From contig CM102286.1 of the NCBI GenBank assembly GCA_046563655.1, positions 9,858,001-9,922,000 of the forward strand: a DNA stretch of 64,000 nt. The letters are read 5' to 3'. A program made the translations under genes and the position numbers. Below the pieces are notes generated by a model. That model had not been told where the DNA came from. It worked only from the letters and a program-made list of their open reading frames with translations, and did not search any database. Of the stretch, positions 50,077-62,800 are shown piece after piece. Each line of letters opens with the position of its first letter. The first letter of the stretch is position 1. This DNA is from Yuukianura sp. NJ FZ-2021. Lineage: Eukaryota.

Positions 50077-52141
50077 GATAAATTTTGCGATGTATTTAAT
50101 TGGGTACGCAGGATTTGTGGAGTCTATTTTAACCCGTTCCCACTCGTTTCTGGAAGATTCTAGGAGAATTTTGGAAGATTTTATTGCGAACTTCATTTCT
50201 GAGCTATACTTTTATTTTTCTAAAATTTTTCTGTTAACCTCTCTAGCAAATGACGGGTTTTAGCCTCCGGTTGCTGCTGTTTTAGATTTGCAGGATGACA
50301 CAAATCTTAGATTTCAAAATTGAGCTGTGAATGTCGCAGTAAATTAAACTTATGTAGTTCCGCCAAATTTGTGTCTGTCTTGAACGCTTCCTTAATTTTT
50401 AATCAGTAAGGTGTGCGAACACCCTGGAAACGGGGGGTCAAAATGCGGCTGTAACTCATCAAATGGAAAATGGTCTGGATCAGCGTAGGAAGGTCGTACA
50501 ATGACCTACAATATATCAAAATTTAGGAAAAGACTTGATCTAGTAACCTGCCCTAGCAAATTACAAAATTTTAGTTCTATCTATGTAAATATGGAGGCGG
50601 AATGTTTGGGTCAATTTTTTTAACAGTTAGAACTAAAATTTTGTAATTTGCTATTGCAGGGTACTAGATCAAGTCTTTTCCTAAAGTTTGATACATTGTG
50701 GGTCACTGTACCACATTCCTACGCTGACCCAGACCATTTTTCAATTTCAGTGTCGCGGTCTCAGAAAAGTTGGTTGCAATACCCAAACGAAGGCAAACCG
50801 AACTTGAACGCATAAAACACGTCCGTAAGGAGGAAAATATCCATATACCTAGGTGTTTATATTTTTTACTACAAACTCAATCGGCCAGCTTGTAGCTTCA
50901 TCGAATTATTTTTCGGGACTACAACTTTTCATGCTTATCGTTTCCAAGTCCTTTTGACTAGTCAGTAATTCAGACAACCTTAATCGTTTCATAACTACGC
51001 ACTAAGTTGCATAGGTTTTTCTAAAAAAAATATTAGTTCTGGACGGATCGCAACGCAACTTCATGGAATGTCTCCTCATATTTTGTCGAGTTATTTATCC
51101 CATTATCCCAAGCGAGAATATACATCGTAACGCCATTGTCCTGAAAATTGGCGAAGTGTTGTGCAATTTCCAAATTCACTTTTCCAAGCCTCGTCCTGCG
51201 ATTTTGTCTACAACAAAACCTTACTTTAAGGACGGCAACAAGAGGAATTGGGTATACAATTACCAGATGTATAATTGCATAAAATGCGGTCACCAATTCA
51301 TTTTTTGAGTTGCACCGTATATACAACACCGTATCTACAAATTATAATTAGTAGTAAATTGCCTTGTTAAATTTATGTTGATGGCACAATTGACTTTATT
51401 AGTACTTGCAAAACTACCTCGTGCCGACCTTGCGATAAACTTCAGCTTATAAAACTTAGATAAAGCAAACGTGGACTTCCATCGCAAAAGCAAAAAAAAA
51501 CTAGGAGTTTTCCGGATTTCCTCTACAAGACAAAACATATTCGAAATAAGTTTGTGCTCCACCTTTCTCATGTAGGATATTGAAAAAAAATTTATTCTTC
51601 GCTTTTATGAGTTACGCCATTATTAAAACCTTTCTAGGGCAGGTTTTAATAAAAAAAAAACATTTAATGAAAGCAATTCCAGTTTCCAACAAGCGATTTG
51701 GTATTATTGCAAGGAATGATAGGTTTACTGGGAATTCAAGTTTATCTAAGCATTCAGTACTGTGAATACACTTTTACATCTACTAATAATCTTTACATTT
51801 AACAAGGTTCAGGTCGTAGTTATCAGCTTTTCGCTTGTCCGTGAGTTCGTAATAAGTTTTAATTGTCTGAAAAATTGGTTTCGGAAATGCTGATTAATAT
51901 TGTAAAGAACATAACCAACAAGGCTTTTTTTTAATGGACAGTAGTGGCTGCTTAAGAATTCTGAAAAAAAATGCACCCTCCCTACATTAAAAATTAATTT
52001 TCCTCAGGAAAATTATGCAGATTGCCTAAAATGGAAAACAGTCGACTGCCGATACAGTTGGCTGTCGGTTCCAATTTCCAATTCAATTTAAACCTTAGAC
52101 AGATCCAAGGAATTTTAGGAAAAGCAGCATTAGAGCTCTCT
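50077..52141 (+). repeat. Copy C (uninterrupted apart from a small insert) of the duplicated segment; upstream region of the chemoreceptor gene
   Basis: Contains, contiguously, the sequences found separately at 6112-6960 and 43811-44526. Confidence 0.9.
50412..50824. mobile_element. ~410-bp foldback insertion
   Basis: Absent from the paralogs at ~6415 and ~47400; flanked by GTAAGG twice; ~112-bp inverted arms at 50467-50579 and 50628-50741. Confidence 0.8.
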
Positions 52142-53465
52142 ATGGAGAAAGCATTAGAGCCAGCACTTTTGTGCATAAAAATATCTGGTACGTTTGGACT
52201 TCATCGCCTTCGCTGGTCACAAGAGCAAAATTGTGTTCAGCTAAAACCACAAAGTGGAGTCAAAGGGCATATGCTAAAATGGATTCAGATAACATTGGAA
52301 CTAGTCGTATATGGCTATTTATCCTACATGTTAGCCACAGCCCCTGATTCAAACCCTCGCGACTTTATCATTTTCGTTATTTTAGGGATTGTATTTATAA
52401 TTCATATTTTCACCCATGCTGTGTTTCACTTCGCTTCGACTGAAATGGCAATGTTAGTGAATGGAGATATCATTATTGATGGCTTAATCGGTACGTATCA
52501 AAGCATTGATTAGCTAGGATTAGATTGTACAAATTATTGTAAAACAATATATTCAATTTACCAGAAAATCTTACTGGGAAAACGCCTGAAATCCGAAAAG
52601 CCGAGACTGTCTCGTACAAGCTCATGATGTCGTCAGTAAAATCTCTTAAAGTGGCTCACCTGCTGTTCGGAATTGGAAGTTTCATTGCAATTGAAGGAAA
52701 TGTGCCATTTTGTCGCTTCTTAAATTTTGGCTCCATTTTTATAACAATACCAATTGTGGTACCAGTCACCATCGTTGCGTACATGATGAACGTAATGTCA
52801 CATATCATTGCGTTCACTTTCCTACTTCATCTGTTCTCGACACGCAACTGTCTCAATATGGCAACTCAACTTAGGTAGCCTAAGGAGTTTATCCATTCTT
52901 ACATAATTTATTATAATTGTAGTATATAAGAAGACTACATCGTATTAATGTCATAACGGAACACAAAATGGTTGTTTGTTTGAGCAGGAAAAGAAGCGCT
53001 GAAGGGAGCTGGAGCAATCGGAAGCAGTTCCATTTGCTGTACAGGACGCTGCAAAGCAATCATCAAATGGTCCATGATTTCTTCATTACTATTGCAACGC
53101 CATCTTTGCTCACCATGGAGTCTCTTCTTATATTTTGCCCATTTGTTCTCATTCGATTTGACTTTGACCTCTTCGCATTTACGAGTAGTCTGTGGCTTTT
53201 TGTAATTAATTTGACTATAATGCATGTCTTGCTCTCACTCGGTAACACAGTGACGGAGGCTTCTGGAACTTGCATTGTATATGAAGGAGGGATAGTCAAG
53301 CGACACCGAATGCTGGAGGCTATGGTGAGCCGTGAATTTAAATCGTATCGTCCCTTGTACTGGAAACTGGGGAAGTGCTGCACTATTTCCAAGGTCACTT
53401 ACCTAAACATCCTCAACGACATTGTCATTAACAACGTCATCAGTTTACTCGTAACAATTCCATAA
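52142..53465 (+). CDS. Intact divergent 7TM chemoreceptor-like protein (378 aa; exons 52142-52490, 52565-52874, 52988-53465)
   Basis: Three exons splice in frame through GT-AG introns. Multiple hydrophobic segments and a C-terminal YRPL..KLG..TYL..I.NNVISLL tail like insect GR/OR-superfamily proteins. Confidence 0.8.
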
Positions 53466-53708
53466 TCAAAAGTAAAAACTTCGAACCGATTTCACCGTGC
53501 GACAATTTAATTGGTATTCGTGTCCGTGTAATACTTATGTTATCTCCGATGCTTTGCTAAGAATGTTGTTGCTGTTTTATGCTTTTGAACTTCGGTGAGT
53601 ATTTTTTTTAGAAAATTAAATCTTATTTCTATTTACAATTTCTAATCTTAGAAAATTGATCCTGTTTTGCAAAAAAATAAAAAAAAAAAAGCTCCAAACA
53701 GTTGGTAA

Positions 53709-56700
53709 TTTTTTTTTTTTTTTGAATGTACAAAAGTCTTTTATTTAACATAACAGAACTGAAAAAACTTACACCTGCCAGAGGCAGGTTGAGGTATTTA
53801 AAGACGTATTGAAAAAATTTTTAAATCATATAAATTTCGTAGAGTTCTTTTCCTGACGGTAGGGTACCCAATATAGAAGTGGCATTTCCTCTTTGGATGG
53901 CAAGGCTAATTCGTTGAAAGAGGAAGGATGTTGCTCGATTGTCACCGGTGGCTTCTGAGAGGCGATGTCCAATGGAATTGAGTAGACGTCGGCCTTCTTC
54001 CCCGTAGACTCCAGTTGTCTCGACTGCAATGATGGAAACAATAAATCGATGATCAAGGTCACGGTAGAGGTCATGCTTATGGATTTCAGCAACGGCAGCA
54101 GGATGACCGAGAACGGAGGATGATGTTGCTAGGTAGGAAGCAGCGAAGGTGTCACGGCAGGTAAAGTCCCAGGCAAGGGAGCGACCGGACTTCCAAGGAA
54201 TGAGAGTGATTCCATCAGGTCGCTTTCCATCAGTTCTGGAACAGCCGGAAGGTTCTTTCATACATGGTATTCCACTTGTTTGAAGCGATCTTGAAATGAT
54301 GTCGTTTACAGCGGCGTGTCTTGAATGTCTGCCTGCACTTCTCGTACAGCTTAGGCCGTGCAAGCCGTTGCTTGATACCAAAGTTCCGCATGGACATCGA
54401 TGAGGTTGGCAAATTTCGGTGCCTAGCCGCAATCCACAAGAAATTCTGAAGGTTTCGTCTGAAAGGAGCGTCCCAAGAGGCGAAGATGGAATAGCCAGTA
54501 GCCAATCTCCAGAATGAGGGGCGGCTGAAGCAAGCAGTCGTGCTTTATCGATGAGAGTGGTTGATTTCTCCAGCAGGTTGGAGTAGATCTTTTCGAAGAT
54601 CTGAATTTCCCAGAGTTTTTGTATTTTTCCATCTTGCGGCGTTATGAAGTCCAAATTTGACCAACTGAGGGAAGCAAGGTCCACTGAATTATCGAAAGGC
54701 GAAAGATGTGGTGGAAGGAAGGTAGAAATTAGTTCGGCACAACTATAGACTGAAGCCAAAAAGGAAAATGTAGCACAGTCCGTCGCGTGGCGAATGCCTA
54801 AACCACCTTGATTCACAGGCAAAGAAGACTGCAACCATGCTTCTTCATTCAAACTTGAGTTCAGGATGGATTCCAACACGGTGCGTAAAGCTGAGTCGTA
54901 AGCTTGTAGGAGGTCAGGTTCGAGGAATGCAGGAGAACATCTGACAAAGTACAGAAGTCTTGGTGTTGAAATTGATGCCCTAAGTAGAAAAAACGCTACA
55001 TGGGCTGGCAGGCAAGAGAGTCTTGATGAAAGTCTGTTGAAGTCATCAGTTTTGGATTTGAGGATACGACGTGAAGATTCTTTGAACAGAGGCGCTCCCA
55101 ACAGTTCTGTTTGTCCTTTCTCGGGGAAGACGAACTCCGGCGAAATCGATTTGAAGGAGTTGGTGATTAACTTTTGTTCAGACTGGTCGGCAGACAGAAT
55201 GATTACTTCGCATTTCTTCATGTTCAAATGCAGACCAAAAGAACTGGCACTAGATTGGATGGTTATGAGGTTTTTGAGCACAACATCTGGAGAGTCGCCA
55301 ATTGTCGCGTCGTCTAAGTACCACGAATTGAATTCGGTCGTTAGGGATGCGGCTAGTGGGTGAATTGTTAGTGCGAAAAGTGCAGGACCCAATGGGCAAC
55401 CTTGTTGGACTCTAACTTGGACTTGATGCAGCTAGAGTTGTAGAAGAGGTCTGATTCGAACGAGTATGCTTGAGAGACGAAATTGAAGATTTCTGGTAGA
55501 TGAGTTTTCACAGCATTCAGCATTTGATCTCTTCTGATAAGATTAAAGGCGTTTCGAAAATCCAACTTCAGAAGAACCTTGGGAGAGGCGTGATTGGCGT
55601 TGCAGAAGATCCTGGCAGCGTGAGCCACGGCTTCGGCTCCGTTCTTGACGCCGACGCCTGTTTGAATTGGATGTAGGATGGACGAAATGGCGTTCATTGA
55701 GCGCGACAGGATTAGCTTCGACACTAGGCGTCTCCAGGTGAGGCCGATTGCAATTGGCCGGATTCCACCTTTTTCTTCTGAATCGCAATAAGGGAAGCAC
55801 CGAAGAACACAGGCCGGATGTCGACAGGAAGAGAATCATTAGCGATGAGATTGCACAGCTTGGAAATTGAAGATAGCAGCGCTAAACCTGCATCTCCTGA
55901 TGATTTTGATGTAAGTTCTTTTAGTATTTGAGGACGAAGCGAGTCAAGGCCACCGGAAGAACCATTTGGGAATGAAGAGATAGATTTCAGGATGTCACTT
56001 TCTTCGAAAATGATGTTTGTTGGAGAAGGTGGGTCTGGCATGACGGTTGGTAGAGGATGAGCCGGGTGTAACTCGTGGAGGGCTTCAATAGTGGAGGAGT
56101 CATCCGATGCCAAACAGTCATCAGAACAGAGAACTCGAATGGATCCACGAATGTCGCCGTCCGCTAGTTTAGATTGAACGAGTTTGGAACAATTCCAGTG
56201 TTGGGATGATGGCAAGTAGCGGGGGAGATTATGAGTTGATGGTGAGTTGAAGAACGTAGACGATGAGAAGGAGGAGAAGCGGTTGACATTTGACTTCACC
56301 CATTTGGTCAGATTTGGAACAGGGTCTTCTTTTTTCGGAAGATGTAGTGCAGCATATGGAAAAAAGAAAAGCCTTTCCCACGATTCCGAGGAGTTCTCGG
56401 TAACGACTTGTTCTATGACGGCGGAGAGTGTGGATGCCACAACTTGTCTAGCTCCCTTGGGGATGTGTTTGAGAATTTGAATTGATTTTTTCAAAAGTGC
56501 GAGTCGTGAACCAATAGTAAGATCCGGAGATGATGATTGAGCAGTGGGGTCCAAAAATGTAATCCCAAGATACGATTGTTCAATGTGTTTCCGTCCGCTC
56601 GCCCTTGTTTTGGTGATATTTGGAAATATCTTCAAAAGTTTTGAACCCATGGTTGTGTCAGCTAGTGGTTTGATATGAATTGATGCACAAAAGCGGTGGT

Positions 56701-57100
56701 ATTTGTCTTTAAATTCCTGCTTTTTCATCAAACCACCGGAGACAAGGCGGATATTGTTTGAGATCCAGTCGTCACTTAGTTTGGAAATTACAGATTTGCT
56801 TCGATTCTCGGAAGTAGAAGTACGATTGGAGAATGTCTGATGTCTGGCTGAATCGTCAACTCCCAATCCGCAGTCATCTAATGATGACCCGATTCCGGGA
56901 ATCTCCACGATTGTAATGTCACGGATCGATGTTTCTGGGTCGTTTTGAACGACATTGGGATCAGACGAACAGTCAAAAGTAAAGTTGGTTTGAGAGTCTT
57001 GATTCGGATGAATGTTTGAACTGAAGTTTTCCATTCTCTCACTTGTTGTTGTTGTCAAGGTTATGCGAATGATAATTGTGAATTCGGAATTTTTCGAAGA
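53709..57100 (-). mobile_element. CRE-like non-LTR retrotransposon (RT plus restriction-like endonuclease); two frameshifts; 5' end not defined
   Basis: KLDFRNAFN and WYLDDATI; zinc knuckle CPCG..HGLSC..RH; RLE RPDG..WKSGRSLAWDFT..E..K; QRISLAIQRGNA. AATAAA plus a polyA tail at 53709-53723. Frameshifts near 55750 and 55400. Confidence 0.9.
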
Positions 57101-58191
57101 AAAATTAGTGAAGGCCCAATGTTGTCCAGGAGATAAGCAATTGATGATTTGTTTGTTTGAGTTATGATGTCTTGAGAGCGAATTTTGGAGTCAGAATTTC
57201 AGGACTTTGGTTGACGAAAGTGGGCCAGTTGACAAGTGTCCGGTTGTAAAATGCATGTAGAAGCACATCAAAGGATGCGCGACAATGAGATGAACAATCT
57301 GATATGAAAATGATGGACTTTTATACTAAATTCACTCAGAAAACAATCAAAAACTCGGGAGCGAATTTTTGCGTGTCAACAGATTGTTTTGATGATGTTG
57401 TAATTGATTGAAGTTGATGTTGGTAATTTGTTTATCAGAATCTTTGCGTTTTGGCAATCCAATAGAATTGATGATTGATGAATTGATAACTTGATGAATA
57501 AATAAATCGTGAATAATGCTGGACTTGTAAAAGCATCCAGCAACACTTACCCACTGGACTAGGCTAGTACTAGGCATTGCATTGCATTTTAGTATTGCAT
57601 TTGTATTTGCGTTAAGAATTTGAATGAAAGATCAAGGCACCCTCTAGCGCAAATGGTCACTTGAATCCAAAATGATCTTAGAACAAACTCTAGGATAGGA
57701 GGATAGGGGTATAAGGGAGCAGCAAAAACTGAACGCTGAAACTCTCAGCTGGAAGATCAGGCATCAGGTAAGGTTAGTTTCGATATTTTTCAATCATCCT
57801 GTTAAAACTAGAAGCGGCTGATTGTCATGATTTAAGTTAACCTGTTGAGTCATAGTAGTAGTTAACCTTTTAGTTAGTAGTACATAGTAGAGGTAATACT
57901 ACTCCTAGAGGAGAGGTAGAGGAGAGGTACTCCTAGGTTGACGTGGAACCAAGAAAAGCGAATTTCCTTGTATTTGGCGAATCGTTTAGGAACCGATACA
58001 TCTTTAAGACTTCAAAGAAAGTATCAACTTGAGTAGCATTTCATTACAGTACGTAAGTGGTGGCTCAATATGTTAGCGAAAATTAGCACAAGGGAGACGT
58101 AAGATCGTAGGCTGTACTTAGTGACTTCTCCGTTCGATCTCCACCAGAACTATAACCTGATGTTTTTTTAATGGAATTTTAGTGTCGGAGG

Positions 58192-59206
58192 ATGGATATG
58201 CAAGATCGGCGTATAAGCGAGGAATCTGGGGATTCCTGTCAACTTCAGCTTGTTAGGTAAAATCATGTTGCCAACCAAACCATTAGTAATACCAAGTGCG
58301 CAAAAGCTACTTCTTTGTTTTGAACCTTGTATTACGTTCAGGAACATATGGATTCCAGGCCCACAATTCCGTGGGAGGACGTCAGTTTCGGCTGTAAGAC
58401 CTGCTCGTACCCGTCCTCCATTTGCTGCAGTAAGAATTGCACAGCCAACATCAATCTCAGTTCGTCCGTCCTATGGCGTCAATCGACCTGAACGACTTAG
58501 ATTCCGTGCAACTCGAAATTCGGGCAACGAACCCTTCATTACGGGTATTCGTCCTCCTCGTCGTCCTGGTTTGCCCGGAGCAGTACGTTTCCCGGTGCCT
58601 GTCGCTGGCAGAGGGATTGAAGCGAGTGACATTGTTCCGTCTTCAAGACCTGGCAATCCAGCTGAGCCTTCGAATGATCCATTTGCTTGGTGTAAGAAAA
58701 TACCATGTAGGTATTTCGCGAACGGCAGTTGTATTCTGGGTACAACATGCAGATACCTTCATCCGGTTTCTTTACCCGGTAAGATGTAGGATATGGATAA
58801 GAGCTGAGTGCCGAGGGCGTAAGAGATTTAGGTCCTAAAACGTGTCAAGGCCTAATTGTTTAGGGCCTTAGCATGCTGAAGGCTTAAAACTTTGGAGCGA
58901 ATTCATATGACCAAGTGACTGCGTCCCAAATTCATACGGCCTAATCGCATAGAACCTTACCATTAGTCTATTATTTATCTGTTCATTATCATCTGTGACC
59001 ATAATTCAATTTAAATGTTAATATCGTTTCTTATTTCCTATACAGCAGCTACTCCGCAACAGGAAGAGGAAACTGGAGTGACTGTAGTCCCTCCAGTCGA
59101 ACCAGTTACAGCCCCGAAAGCCGCTCCTATTCTTCGTCCTCCAATTCTCCGTGAACTCAAACAGCAGGATGTGATGATGGATTTTTCAGATTCTGACTCC
59201 GATTGA
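58192..59206 (+). CDS. Pro/Arg-rich protein with one CCCH zinc finger (220 aa; exons 58192-58256, 58342-58778, 59046-59206)
   Basis: In-frame GT-AG splicing; KIPCRYFANGSCILGTTCRYLH (C-x7-C-x5-C-x3-H). Confidence 0.75.
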
Positions 59207-59618: not shown

Positions 59619-59632
59619 GTTGTCATAGCAAC
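59619..59632. promoter_or_regulatory. X-box (RFX binding site) upstream of the ciliary gene
   Basis: GTTGTCATAGCAAC, a near-consensus palindromic X-box, ~210 bp upstream of the EFHC2-like ATG. Confidence 0.8.
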
Positions 59633-59839: not shown

Positions 59840-62800
59840 ATGAATCCACAAATGAATCCATTTGGGAACATCATTGACCAAAGCTTGGCAAAAAGCCTCC
59901 CTTTGCTTCCTGGGAACACCTTCAACTTCAACGTAAGGCTTCACCATTTACATATAACTTACAAACTAGAACGTATGCTTACTTATTAACAGACCTTGTG
60001 TATTGATTACATATAGGTTGGCGCTGATCGCTTCCAGTTATCTCAACATTGGGCTCTCAAGGATGGTATACCAGTTTTGGCTGATCGTGACCTTCCTCGT
60101 AACAAACCTGGAATTGGAGGACTTGTAAGCTACTGCTAGACACATTAAATTTGACTTAAGCATTAATGATAGTAACTATTGTGTTCGCACTTTGCAGGAA
60201 CCGCCACCGTGGGCTCCACGCAAGCTTCCTGAAGAATGTCCTCTTTATCCAAAGACTCATGGTTCAAAGGTGCCGGCGTTCATCAAATTCGACAAGAAGG
60301 TAGCAGAAACAATTTTTGGTGCACTTTATGTTATGTTCAACCCATTAACCAAATCTATTAATTGCAGGTTCTCACTTTTCAAGCATACTATCAGGAGCCA
60401 ATTCCTGAGTCAGCGGCTGAGAATTATCGGGTTCACCAGTGCAAAATCTACTACTACCTTGATGACAACACTATCCAAGTAGTCGAGCCCAAAACATTCA
60501 ACTCCGGAATGCCTCAAGGGACGCTGATTCGGCGACACCGAATCCCGATGGATCCGCCGTGCAAAGATGAATACTTCAACCTTCTGCATTTTAACGTCGG
60601 ATGTGAGGTGACGCTGTACGGGAAAACATTCTTCATCTGCTCTTGCGATCCATTCACACGAAATTTTCTGAATCGTCTTGGAATTCGGGTGGCTGCGGAT
60701 ATGGAGCTCCCACCCGATGTTGCGACTGAAAAGCTAAAAGATGTGAGGCTTACCAATTTGTCTACTAAGATTTCAATTCTAAATATTGATTTTTTTTATC
60801 ACAGAAAAAGACAAGCCAATTTGCTCGAAAGCCACATCATTGCTTGGACACTCGTGGGCCATTTCTATTACACGACAGACATGTTCTGCGTTTCTGGGCC
60901 TACTGGGATGACCGTTGCAACCTTTACGGCGACTTGAGGGAATTCGTTGTTCACTACTTTCTCAGCGACGATACAATGGAGATTCGGGAAATCATCAAGC
61001 CAAACACCGGATATGACTCCTTCCCATGCTTCCTTCGGCGCGGGAAGCTTATCAAGGTATGCCAGACTAAAACACTTTTACATAGAAACTTGGAGTGATT
61101 TAGAACGAAATTAAGGTCCTAGTGCTTACTTGTTTCTTTACTTTGTTTACACCAAGGATCCTTCTAAACTTGTTGCATTACCTGGAGTGGAGACGCCACA
61201 GACAATTCTGAACGTTTTCGGATCGATGCATGGAACGAAAAACAAGAAGGCTCATTTCATCGTTGACAATTTGGGACTTGGAGCTCGAAATTTGGAGTAC
61301 TACACAGACAGGGACTTGGCAATCGGCGCTGTGATCAACGCGCTGGGTCGTGCGTTCACGCTTATTAGATGTGACGAGTTTACCAAAAAGTACTACCAGG
61401 AACGTTATGGTGTCGGTAAGACTTACTTATAAAGCTTCAGTAGCATTCTGTAACCATTTTAATCTTTCCGTGTATATTTTTTTCAGAGGATTTTACTCCA
61501 CTTGAGCTATCAAAGGCAGAGGAAGAACCGGAACTCCCACGACCCGAAACACGTAAGATTATTTACAACTACAGCTTATTTTGTGTCACAAGTTAACTGC
61601 TTAATCAATTAATTTTCAATTCAGCTCCATACACTGGCTGGGGAACTGAGGTTTGTTTAATTTGCACTATCAAGCTAATTCCGTTGTTTCCAGCTAACTG
61701 TAAACGTTTCATTATAATTTATTTCATAGGAAGATTCGTTGGTGAGCTGGAGAAGTATTGAAATGAAACCCCATGTAAAGGACTACCGGAAATTTGCTGA
61801 GAAGGAAAAGTAAGTTGCAATATTTCCAAAGGAAACTAAAAGTAAATGTCTGTAGGACAATTGGTTCCGCTGAATTGGTAATCCTAGTACTAAAATTATT
61901 GAATTTAAACCTTTACATTTTGTTTATTTAGGGATATCCTTCGCTTTGAAGCCAGGCTGTACAACCCATTGCAGAAAGTGAATCGCGATCGACGATTCAC
62001 AATTAGTTACTATATGGCTGATGACACGACGCAGGTTTTTGAAAACCTACACCCCAATACTGGTAAGACACTTTTTAATAGGTAAAACACAGACTTTTTA
62101 ATACGAATTTTTGCTCACATGCTGACTAAATGAATTGCTGTTTGTAGGCTTACCGAAGGGTAACTTCTTCTACCGTGGTCGTGCCATGAAGCCGGGCGCT
62201 CAAAGAGAGCTTGGATTCAAACCTGAATACTACGAGCCGAAAGACTTCTTTGTCGGAAACATTTTGAAGATCAATTCCTTTGACTTCCAGCTCGTCCTGG
62301 CGGACGAGTTTACGTACTCGTACATGGAACGTAACAAGGATCAAGTAAGTAAACGTAATCAGTTTAAACATTCTTAAAAATCAAACAACGTTGTTCCATC
62401 ATTTTCTTTTGTTTTCAGTTTCCAGCCTCAGATATTTGCATCTGCCTGAACAAAATTCGGGAAGCATTTGGTCCACTTCAAGCAGAAGATGTTTTGAAGT
62501 GTTTTGCGGAAAATGACACCAATCTCCAAGGCGTGATGGACGTTCGCAACTTCCGCTCGTTGTTGCTTCAGATTTCAAAGTGTGCGTTGAGTGAGCATGA
62601 AATTCAGACGCTAGCTCGATGCTACGCCGCTCATGCTCCTCCCCCGGCGTAGACTTTGAAACGCTCCAGTAAGACATGAACATCAAACTTATTTAACTAC
62701 TTTTACACAGATTCAGTTTGATTTTTGTTTTCTTAGGGCAATTGTCCAGACGGAATTGCGGAAATCTAACTTCGACAAGTTTCTTATGGAGCGGGTAGAG

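Follow-up and report, generated by a model that had tools for sequence, protein, structure and literature searches.

An R2-like retrotransposon of Yuukianura with an RFX-type winged-helix domain at the position of an N-terminal zinc finger

Can a retrotransposon exchange the DNA-binding fold at its N-terminus, and what would such an exchange do to its choice of target? This question is raised by a locus of Yuukianura sp. NJ FZ-2021, in a stretch of 64,000 nucleotides (assembly GCA_046563655.1, contig CM102286.1, positions 9,858,001 to 9,922,000 of the forward strand) that we call the window and whose positions are numbered from its first letter. In it, an initial annotation had noticed a CRE-like retrotransposon with an RFX-type winged-helix domain at its N-terminus, and had suggested that this was a swapped-in DNA-binding module that may define a new mode of targeting. 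The reading that we favor, and hold to be probable, is that the element is a recent, polymorphic copy of an R2-like long interspersed nuclear element (LINE), from a large and non–site-specific animal family with a sublineage in which an RFX domain replaced a C2H2 finger, and that this domain is predicted to provide general or weak tethering to DNA rather than a strict choice of site.

First, we determined whether the RFX domain is what it seems to be. Translation of the minus strand at 56555-56767 gives exactly the 71-residue peptide on which the claim was based (the end at 56775 given earlier was 8 bases too far), and the plus strand of 56555-56775 contains many stops. The peptide takes up residues 98-168 of an open frame of 444 codons (57058..55727), in which the first ATG is at 57034. 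The Pfam profile RFX_DNA_binding (PF02257) matches residues 97-167 of this piece over profile positions 6-76 of 79, with an E value of 3e-6 and a score of 28.2 bits, above the curated cut-off of 27; no D5-type family was found in the 444-residue piece by Pfam at E<=1. When the PDB was searched with the window piece using phmmer, the sole match at E<=1 was the DNA-binding domain of RFX5 (8zjr_M, E 4.2e-5), and a profile built from 12 carriers matched RFX5 and RFX1 (1dp7) with E values of 5.1e-16 and 4.3e-13, respectively. Structure prediction gave the same answer. An AlphaFold2 model of residues 77-201, based on a 12-row alignment, has a mean predicted local distance difference test (pLDDT) score of 83.2 and a predicted order of helix, strand, helix, helix, strand, hairpin, and strand, i.e., a winged helix with wing 1. 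Its Foldseek matches in the PDB at E<=0.001 are only RFX5, with a template modeling (TM) score of 0.88 and a root-mean-square deviation (rmsd) of 1.3 Å over 79 columns, and the RFX1–X-box complex, with a TM score of 0.90 and an rmsd of 1.3 Å over 75; the following match has an E value of 0.057. These findings show that the RFX-type winged helix is genuine. According to the part of PMC2533330 that was consulted, wing 1 of RFX contacts the major groove of DNA and helix 3 the minor groove; in RFX1, nine residues make contact with DNA.

The place of the domain upstream of the reverse transcriptase (RT) is borne out both by Pfam and by tblastn. A regular-expression scan of the three pieces into which the open reading frame (ORF) of this copy is divided also agrees with the view that the ORF has no C2H2 finger, since all that it yields is the CCHC knuckle of the C-terminus and, at residue 310, a single Cys/His stretch in a region where the relative P0001 has no cysteines. 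No Myb domain was found in the element (Pfam, E<=1) and no RFX dimerization domain or other domain of RFX factors in the 444-residue piece, for which Pfam at E<=1 listed only RFX_DNA_binding and a weak zf-FCS. The window element thus resembles the cellular RFX factors (RFX1-8 and DAF-19) in the sequence and fold of its DNA-binding domain but differs from them in that this domain is fused to an RT and an endonuclease and is accompanied by none of their other domains that could be found. Across the carriers that we describe below, the RFX domains share a mean identity of 26%, yet W, K, Y, FP, R-G-R, and Y-GI are conserved, and most carriers retain the wing signature R-x-G-x-R ... Y-x-G-I, which is weakened in the window copy. 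Such a low identity combined with a preserved signature points to constraint on the domain.

Next, we asked whether the RFX segment is part of a mobile unit, by comparing public contigs of four runs (X1 to X4) with 53300-57900. Runs X1, X3, and X4 are from the same sample, which may be the source sample of the window assembly, and X2 is from another study, under another organism label. One contig of X4 (record 25; 12,743 nt) joins 53300-53700 directly to 57419-57900, with no break, and in one contig of X2 the match begins at 57419, the 16 letters before it being those of 53685-53700 but for one base. These empty-site contigs delimit the mobile unit as 53712-57418 plus one 11-bp duplication, and the RFX segment is inside it. 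The two 11-bp repeats are identical to each other, and the element thus has the hallmarks of target-primed reverse transcription: the duplication, a poly(A) tail, and an exact empty site. Since the empty allele is found in run X4, and thus possibly in the source sample of the window itself, the insertion is polymorphic or heterozygous, and recent.

The element has no second copy in the window, as determined by tblastn with three relatives. In X1, 124 contigs align to the element region, 61 of them at >=99% identity, 42 at 95-99%, and 21 at 90-95%, and the abundance of contigs at 90-99% identity indicates a multicopy family. Across the four runs, the 3'-terminal coding bin (53762-53915) has a summed contig depth, which is not equivalent to copy number, of ~8 to 26 times that of the element body (~15 times in X1), and loose contig ends diverge at 53752-53828. 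The high 3' depth may be due to many 5'-truncated copies or to related subfamilies with a common 3' end. At the other end, X2 and X4 contigs stop matching the element at 57377-57387, 31-41 bases inside its 5' end, and run into unrelated AT-rich sequence; they may represent further copies whose 5' ends are slightly shorter or whose 5' untranslated region (UTR) is a variant one.

The same contigs bear on a trivial explanation, in which the RFX segment would be a captured host exon without function, or the whole arrangement a misassembly that fused a host RFX gene to a retrotransposon. A Pfam score barely above the cut-off and a frame-shifted copy are what this explanation would lead one to expect. 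However, the segment shares its reading frame with the remainder of the first ORF piece and belongs to the unit that is absent from the empty allele, and contigs of two studies reproduce the stretch: records 5 and 6 of X1 show no letter differences (one of them with 3 gaps), and record 12 of X2 corresponds to 54464-56747. Moreover, the domain has been kept, with its signature, in at least 16 elements as divergent as stated above, and the carriers include Folsomia candida proteins encoded on contigs of 1.2 to 28.5 Mb. We therefore consider a passenger or an artifact to be highly improbable.

To which group does the element belong? A profile of 22 relatives, over its positions 281-966, aligns in one stretch with residues 409-1131 of an R2 protein (9nl3_A, E 1.5e-17), and also with 9dou_A; the aligned stretch spans the pre-RT region through the RT, the knuckle, and the endonuclease. 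A full-length model of the relative P0001 (pLDDT 84.6) has R2 structures as its top seven Foldseek matches, with E values of 2e-23 to 3e-19, followed by LINE-1 ORF2p, group II intron RTs, and Prp8. No APE domain was found in the Pfam scans of the window pieces and relatives. Since RT, CCHC knuckle, and endonuclease align with those of R2, the element is an R2-like LINE of the restriction-like endonuclease type. In the P0001 model, the RFX domain is flanked by two stretches with a pLDDT of less than 50 (99-110 and 197-201), which fits a tethered module.

When compared with R2 proteins (R2Bm 8gh6, R2Tg 9dou/9nl3, and R2Pm 9nl2), the family has the same pre-RT region, RT, linker, CCHC knuckle, and endonuclease, the same single ORF (in the relatives), and likewise an N-terminal DNA-binding module that is separate from the RT core. 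The R2 N-terminal module is a binder of target DNA. The window element differs by having an RFX winged helix instead of ZF/Myb and by being inserted in unique DNA, with a poly(A) tail and an 11-bp duplication, where the R2 clade inserts in 28S rDNA. The relationship is distant, a single family sequence reaching R2 only with an E value of about 3e-4. In the consulted part of PMC5678591, ZF/Myb/-1 is a separate N-terminal globular domain in R2 and is said to occur in every early-branching LINE; in the window element, there is no N-terminal ZF/Myb, and RFX occupies that position.

The CRE clade (CRE1, CRE2, SLACS, and CZAR), to which the element had been likened, also consists of LINEs with a restriction-like endonuclease. 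SLACS is a CRE-clade element, and spliced-leader genes are the classical target of CRE-clade insertion, unlike the window copy, which lies in no RNA gene recognized by Rfam. Names given by the sources of the relatives point both ways, P0225 (from a barnacle) being called "Retrotransposable element SLACS protein" and P0160 being named after R2DM. CRE elements are listed as trypanosomatid (Crithidia and Trypanosoma cruzi) in the part of PMC5678591 that was consulted.

We wondered how widespread the RFX module might be in this family. A search with the N-terminal piece among 1.84 billion representatives returned 2,646 relatives at E<=0.001, and we ran Pfam on the best 149 of them, plus 9 others. 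In the three sets scanned, RFX was detected in 10 of 68 relatives (7 above the cut-off), 0 of 81, and 2 of 9. The same sets contained other modules, namely PHD (9 of the 68 and 7 of the 81), OTU (2), SAP (1), and C2H2 (4), and 5 C-terminal UCH fusions (P0006, P0051, P0062, P0088, and P0155). A family-specific RFX hidden Markov model (HMM), trained on 11 carriers and the window segment, brought the new detections P0159-P0163, P0013, and P0018, and by this model the domain is present in 18 of 266 relatives, which confirms that other family members have it. A search with the RT-endonuclease part, unbiased because this query does not include RFX, found PF02257 in 9 of its top 19 rows and in none of the 101 that follow. 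With P0159, P0163, and P0020, which are added by the family HMM, RFX is present in 12 of the 19 nearest RT-endonuclease relatives.

Side modules are found elsewhere in the family as well. OTU is located at the N-terminus of P0031, P0059, P0178, P0184, and P0194, and the OTU rows form one clade (support 99). UCH is located at the C-terminus of the five proteins listed above and of P0174, P0234, and P0237, one UCH member being named "Ubiquitin carboxyl-terminal hydrolase 38" by its source, and SAP is found in P0055.

The position of the RFX module is also informative. The domain lies ~20 residues upstream of a PTLRR-P-GAR motif, precisely where sister elements have a C2H2 finger of the type G-L-K-I-H-x-G-[RK]-K-H. 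This finger is borne by P0004, P0005, P0165, P0015, P0167, and P0006, and it was found in none of the 16 RFX carriers inspected. The C2H2 members (such as P0004, P0005, P0165, and P0167; Lepidoptera, barnacle, and sponge proteins) are like the window element in their RT-endonuclease (41-55% identity), in the PTLRR region, and in the position of the module, and unlike it in having one or two C2H2 fingers instead of RFX. We then built a tree (quick search, LG+G4) from 527 RT-endonuclease columns and 54 rows, comprising the window piece, the first 43 search rows minus P0180 (a host-gene fusion), 8 lower rows, and P0004-P0006. In this tree, 12 of the 13 RFX rows are in one clade of 17, with a support of 95 in the Shimodaira–Hasegawa-like approximate likelihood ratio test (SH-aLRT), alongside five finger-bearing rows, and the window element groups with P0159 and P0010 (support 99). 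The five non-RFX rows of the clade carry the conserved type of C2H2 finger or end in a remnant of it, and the same finger is also found in the outgroups P0167 and P0006. The other RFX row, P0016, is outside the clade, on a long branch. The earlier suggestion of a swapped-in module is thus supported, RFX being at the C2H2 position and finger bearers nesting among RFX bearers.

A strict single origin of RFX was tried and rejected by the approximately unbiased (AU) test, with p values of 0.012 for the 13 rows and 0.005 without P0016, which are optimistic because the groups were named after seeing the tree. The rejection of an RFX-only clade implies that the module changed more than once. Most simply, this would have happened by recombination between elements, by analogy with what has been proposed for the number of fingers in BLAG elements (PMC7650587, consulted in part). 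These elements of the German cockroach are described in the same source as R2-like and randomly distributed, with one or two N-terminal CCHH fingers and an N-terminal module that is altered by recombination; three signature motifs characterize BLAG 1-6. The likeness to BLAG, which is by description only, is therefore one of biology, i.e., non–site-specific insertion with a changing N-terminal module; unlike in the window element, no RFX domain is reported for BLAG, "winged" having 0 occurrences in the consulted part of that paper. As for the origin of the module, a word search with residues 112-200 of P0001 (RFX only) returned the query alone, with no donor or taxonomic range visible, and the ESM Atlas, queried with P0001, returned only unnamed PHD/RVT clusters and no clade name.

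In several carriers, RFX is not the only N-terminal module. A PHD-like finger precedes RFX in 7 of the 16 carriers inspected, is partial in an eighth, and follows RFX in one. P0001 has an ING-type PHD (PHO23/ING, E 1.6e-15 to 1e-8), and PHD is found beside RFX in the relatives P0001, P0011, P0017, P0160, P0162, P0012, P0061, and P0075. ING-type PHD fingers are readers of a histone mark, and the occurrence of such a probable reader beside a DNA-binding domain is a hint of chromatin-directed insertion. These fingers also lend some appeal to a different explanation, in which RFX would serve another role, such as binding to the element's own promoter or RNA, interference with host RFX, nuclear entry, or chromatin reading together with PHD, the more so as the termini of family members accept modules as varied as SAP, OTU, and UCH. 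We regard this as improbable. No X-box–like match was found inside the element, 5' UTR included, so there is no visible site for RFX in a promoter of its own; RFX is at the exact position of the finger of the sister elements; and the corresponding ZF/Myb motifs of R2 form a separate small globular domain (PMC5678591, consulted in part).

Would an RFX domain then steer insertion to specific sites? In this alternative, it would target X-box–type sites (in front of cilia genes) or another fixed motif, which would be a new mode for endonuclease-bearing LINEs. There are reasons to entertain it, since the RFX domain family is a sequence-specific DNA binder (PMC2533330) and most LINEs with a restriction-like endonuclease are target specific (PMC4640811), both according to the parts consulted. 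We searched the window for the X-box, using a nematode-type consensus, and scored half-sites against the window expectation. With up to 3 mismatches, there are 7 matches in 64 kb against 7.45 expected, i.e., the chance level, and none within 600 bp of either end of the element. An exact X-box–like motif is present in the window, GTTGTCATAGCAAC at 59619-59632 on the plus strand, with 0 mismatches to the consensus, and it is the only such site. However, it is 2.2 kb from the 5' end of the element. It lies ~570 bp upstream of an ORF run starting at 60192, in which four ORFs within 60362-62377 (plus strand) match DM10 (E 2.6e-28 to 2.4e-6). Judging by these domains, the run looks like an EFHC-like cilia gene, and 59619-59632 is probably an ordinary promoter of a host RFX target.

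The target itself is unique AT-rich DNA with an empty allele. The rebuilt empty site of 160 bp has no exact half-site, where 0.4 would be expected, and 3 half-sites with one mismatch, where 6.25 would be expected. Rfam gave 0 matches on the whole window, which thus has no recognized rRNA or spliced-leader gene. Two 5' flanks of other copies, which are loose contig ends of 30 letters each, have no such motif by eye either. In addition, the element has a single RFX domain, with no dimerization domain at E<=1. The new mode of targeting that had been suggested is therefore not borne out by the single readable site, which has neither an X-box nor an excess of half-sites, and we consider sequence-specific targeting by RFX improbable.

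We thus return to an R2-like element tethered by its RFX domain, for which the following mechanism can be proposed. The element protein would bind its own RNA, and the flexibly tethered RFX domain would give it affinity for double-strand DNA, at the level of a half-site at most because there is one RFX domain and no dimerization module. By analogy with the ZF/Myb module in R2, the domain would hold the ribonucleoprotein on the target DNA. The endonuclease would nick the strand ending in ...TAATTT, these T could pair with the poly(A) tail and prime reverse transcription, and a second nick 11 bp away would lead to the duplication. The contribution of RFX would be a general or weakly specific tethering to DNA or chromatin.

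Several observations weigh against this reading. Among the rows listed, parts of the stretch have no bridging contig, and these include both filled junctions, where we attribute it to the poly(A) run, which cuts contigs; the filled allele is therefore that of the window assembly alone. The half-site counts above come from one readable target site. The wing of the window copy is less canonical than that of most relatives (T-R-A-S-G-R vs. R-R-x-G-x-R), and among the carriers above the cut-off this copy scores lowest with Pfam, the others having 36.8-79.6 bits. This copy is also interrupted by two one-base frame shifts, near 55770 and 55412. Finally, it has a Cys at 55396-55398 (minus strand) in the RT motif Q-G-D-P-L-G-P, where 22 relatives have an invariant Asp. 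The sole variant listed at this codon, at 55396 in X4, leaves the Cys unchanged. Human LINE-1 ORF2p also has a Cys at that position of the motif.

The relatives have one ORF of 959-1363 residues and align by tblastn to three consecutive minus-strand frames of the window copy, whose ORF is in three pieces (Table 1). Each downstream piece is shifted by one base, in the direction expected for a one-base loss, and public contigs have an extra base at both breaks. The breaks are thus either private to the window copy or assembly errors, and the organism also has versions without them. RVT_1 is under the cut-off in both window pieces in which it is detected because the frame break splits the domain; relatives score 39.8-87 bits.

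The coordinates of the element and its parts are given in Table 1. Its GC content is 43-50%, vs. 32-42% in the flanks. It lies between unannotated ORFs at 52022-53465 on one side and an ORF with a CCCH zinc finger on the other (58250-58789, plus strand; zf-CCCH E 2.8e-5), which starts ~830 bp past the 5' end of the element.

Table 1. Features of the retrotransposon in the window, with the evidence for each
Feature	Position	Strand	Evidence and remarks
Whole retrotransposon, ~3.7 kb	53712..57418	minus	5' end at 57418, 3' end in poly(A) run; bounds from empty-site contigs (runs X4 and X2) and duplication
Target-site duplication, upstream copy, 11 bp (plus strand GTTGGTAATTT)	57419..57429	minus	Identical to 53701-53711
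Target-site duplication, downstream copy, 11 bp	53701..53711	minus	Sequence directly past the A run; empty-site contigs
5' UTR, 384 nt	57035..57418	minus	From element 5' end to first ATG at 57034
ORF piece 1: N-terminal tail, RFX domain, conserved PTLRR region, pre-RT region	55772..57034	minus	tblastn with relatives covers 56800-55775
RFX-type winged-helix DNA-binding domain	56555..56770	minus	PF02257; RFX5 sequence match; RFX5/RFX1 fold match
First one-base frame break, in A run of element strand	55769..55770	minus	Frame change; one extra base behind 55769 in contigs of 3 of 4 runs
ORF piece 2: first part of RT	55413..55769	minus	RVT_1 E 0.001, profile 32-106; tblastn 55769-55416
Second one-base frame break	55411..55412	minus	Frame change; one extra base behind 55411 in contigs of 4 of 4 runs
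ORF piece 3: rest of RT, linker, CCHC knuckle, endonuclease, conserved C-terminal tail	53824..55410	minus	RVT_1 E 5.8e-5, profile 125-194; tblastn 55410-53824, 46-51% identity
YLDD motif of RT	55309-55323	minus	In ORF piece 3
Stop codon	53821-53823	minus	End of ORF piece 3
CCHC zinc knuckle (C-x5-C-x-C ... H-x3-C)	54346..54411	minus	Sequence reading; columns invariant in 22 relatives; aligns with R2 knuckle
Restriction-like endonuclease core (...DGKRPDG..., ...WDFTC.D)	54151..54330	minus	D, G, W, D invariant in 22 relatives; aligns with R2 endonuclease (9nl3_A, 9dou_A)
3' UTR, 98 nt	53723..53820	minus	AATAAA at 53740-53745; sequence reading
Poly(A) tail, 11 A (14 counting three A common to duplication)	53712..53722	minus	Sequence reading

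We found no RFX-bearing retrotransposon in the literature searched, although the inventory of endonuclease LINEs by Fell et al., cited in PMC13580325, may already contain such elements. The parts of the R2 and BLAG papers that were consulted (PMC13580325 and PMC7650587) make no mention of a winged helix. Public annotation does contain traces of these elements, since Folsomia candida proteins have been auto-named "RFX-type winged-helix domain-containing protein". One of them, P0161, which has 1101 residues with RFX and RVT_1, bears the source name "RFX-like transcription factor daf-19", and we think, from its domain content, that this is a retrotransposon ORF mis-annotated as a host factor. Retrotransposons named as RFX factors can mislead gene-family counts. 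What is new here are the exact ends of an element, its empty allele, the evidence on the frame breaks, the positional equivalence of finger and RFX, and the negative X-box test.

Work is under way to turn R2-like enzymes into tools for inserting genes, and the address of such an enzyme is set by its N-terminal DNA-binding module. The lineage described here is a natural one that exchanged its DNA-binding fold and stayed mobile, as indicated by a polymorphic insertion and by many near-identical copies in the reads. It shows that the scaffold tolerates swaps, and RFX elements and their C2H2 sisters are ready-made pairs for probing the part of the module in target choice. A bolder idea, which we put forward tentatively and consider unlikely, is that C2H2, RFX, ING-type PHD plus RFX, and SAP are interchangeable address labels and that the RFX version steers the element to a class of sites that no known retrotransposon uses, the candidates being promoter RFX motifs or half-sites, and repeat DNA. 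If this were true, nature would already have run the module-swap experiment that is sought in the retargeting of R2-like elements.

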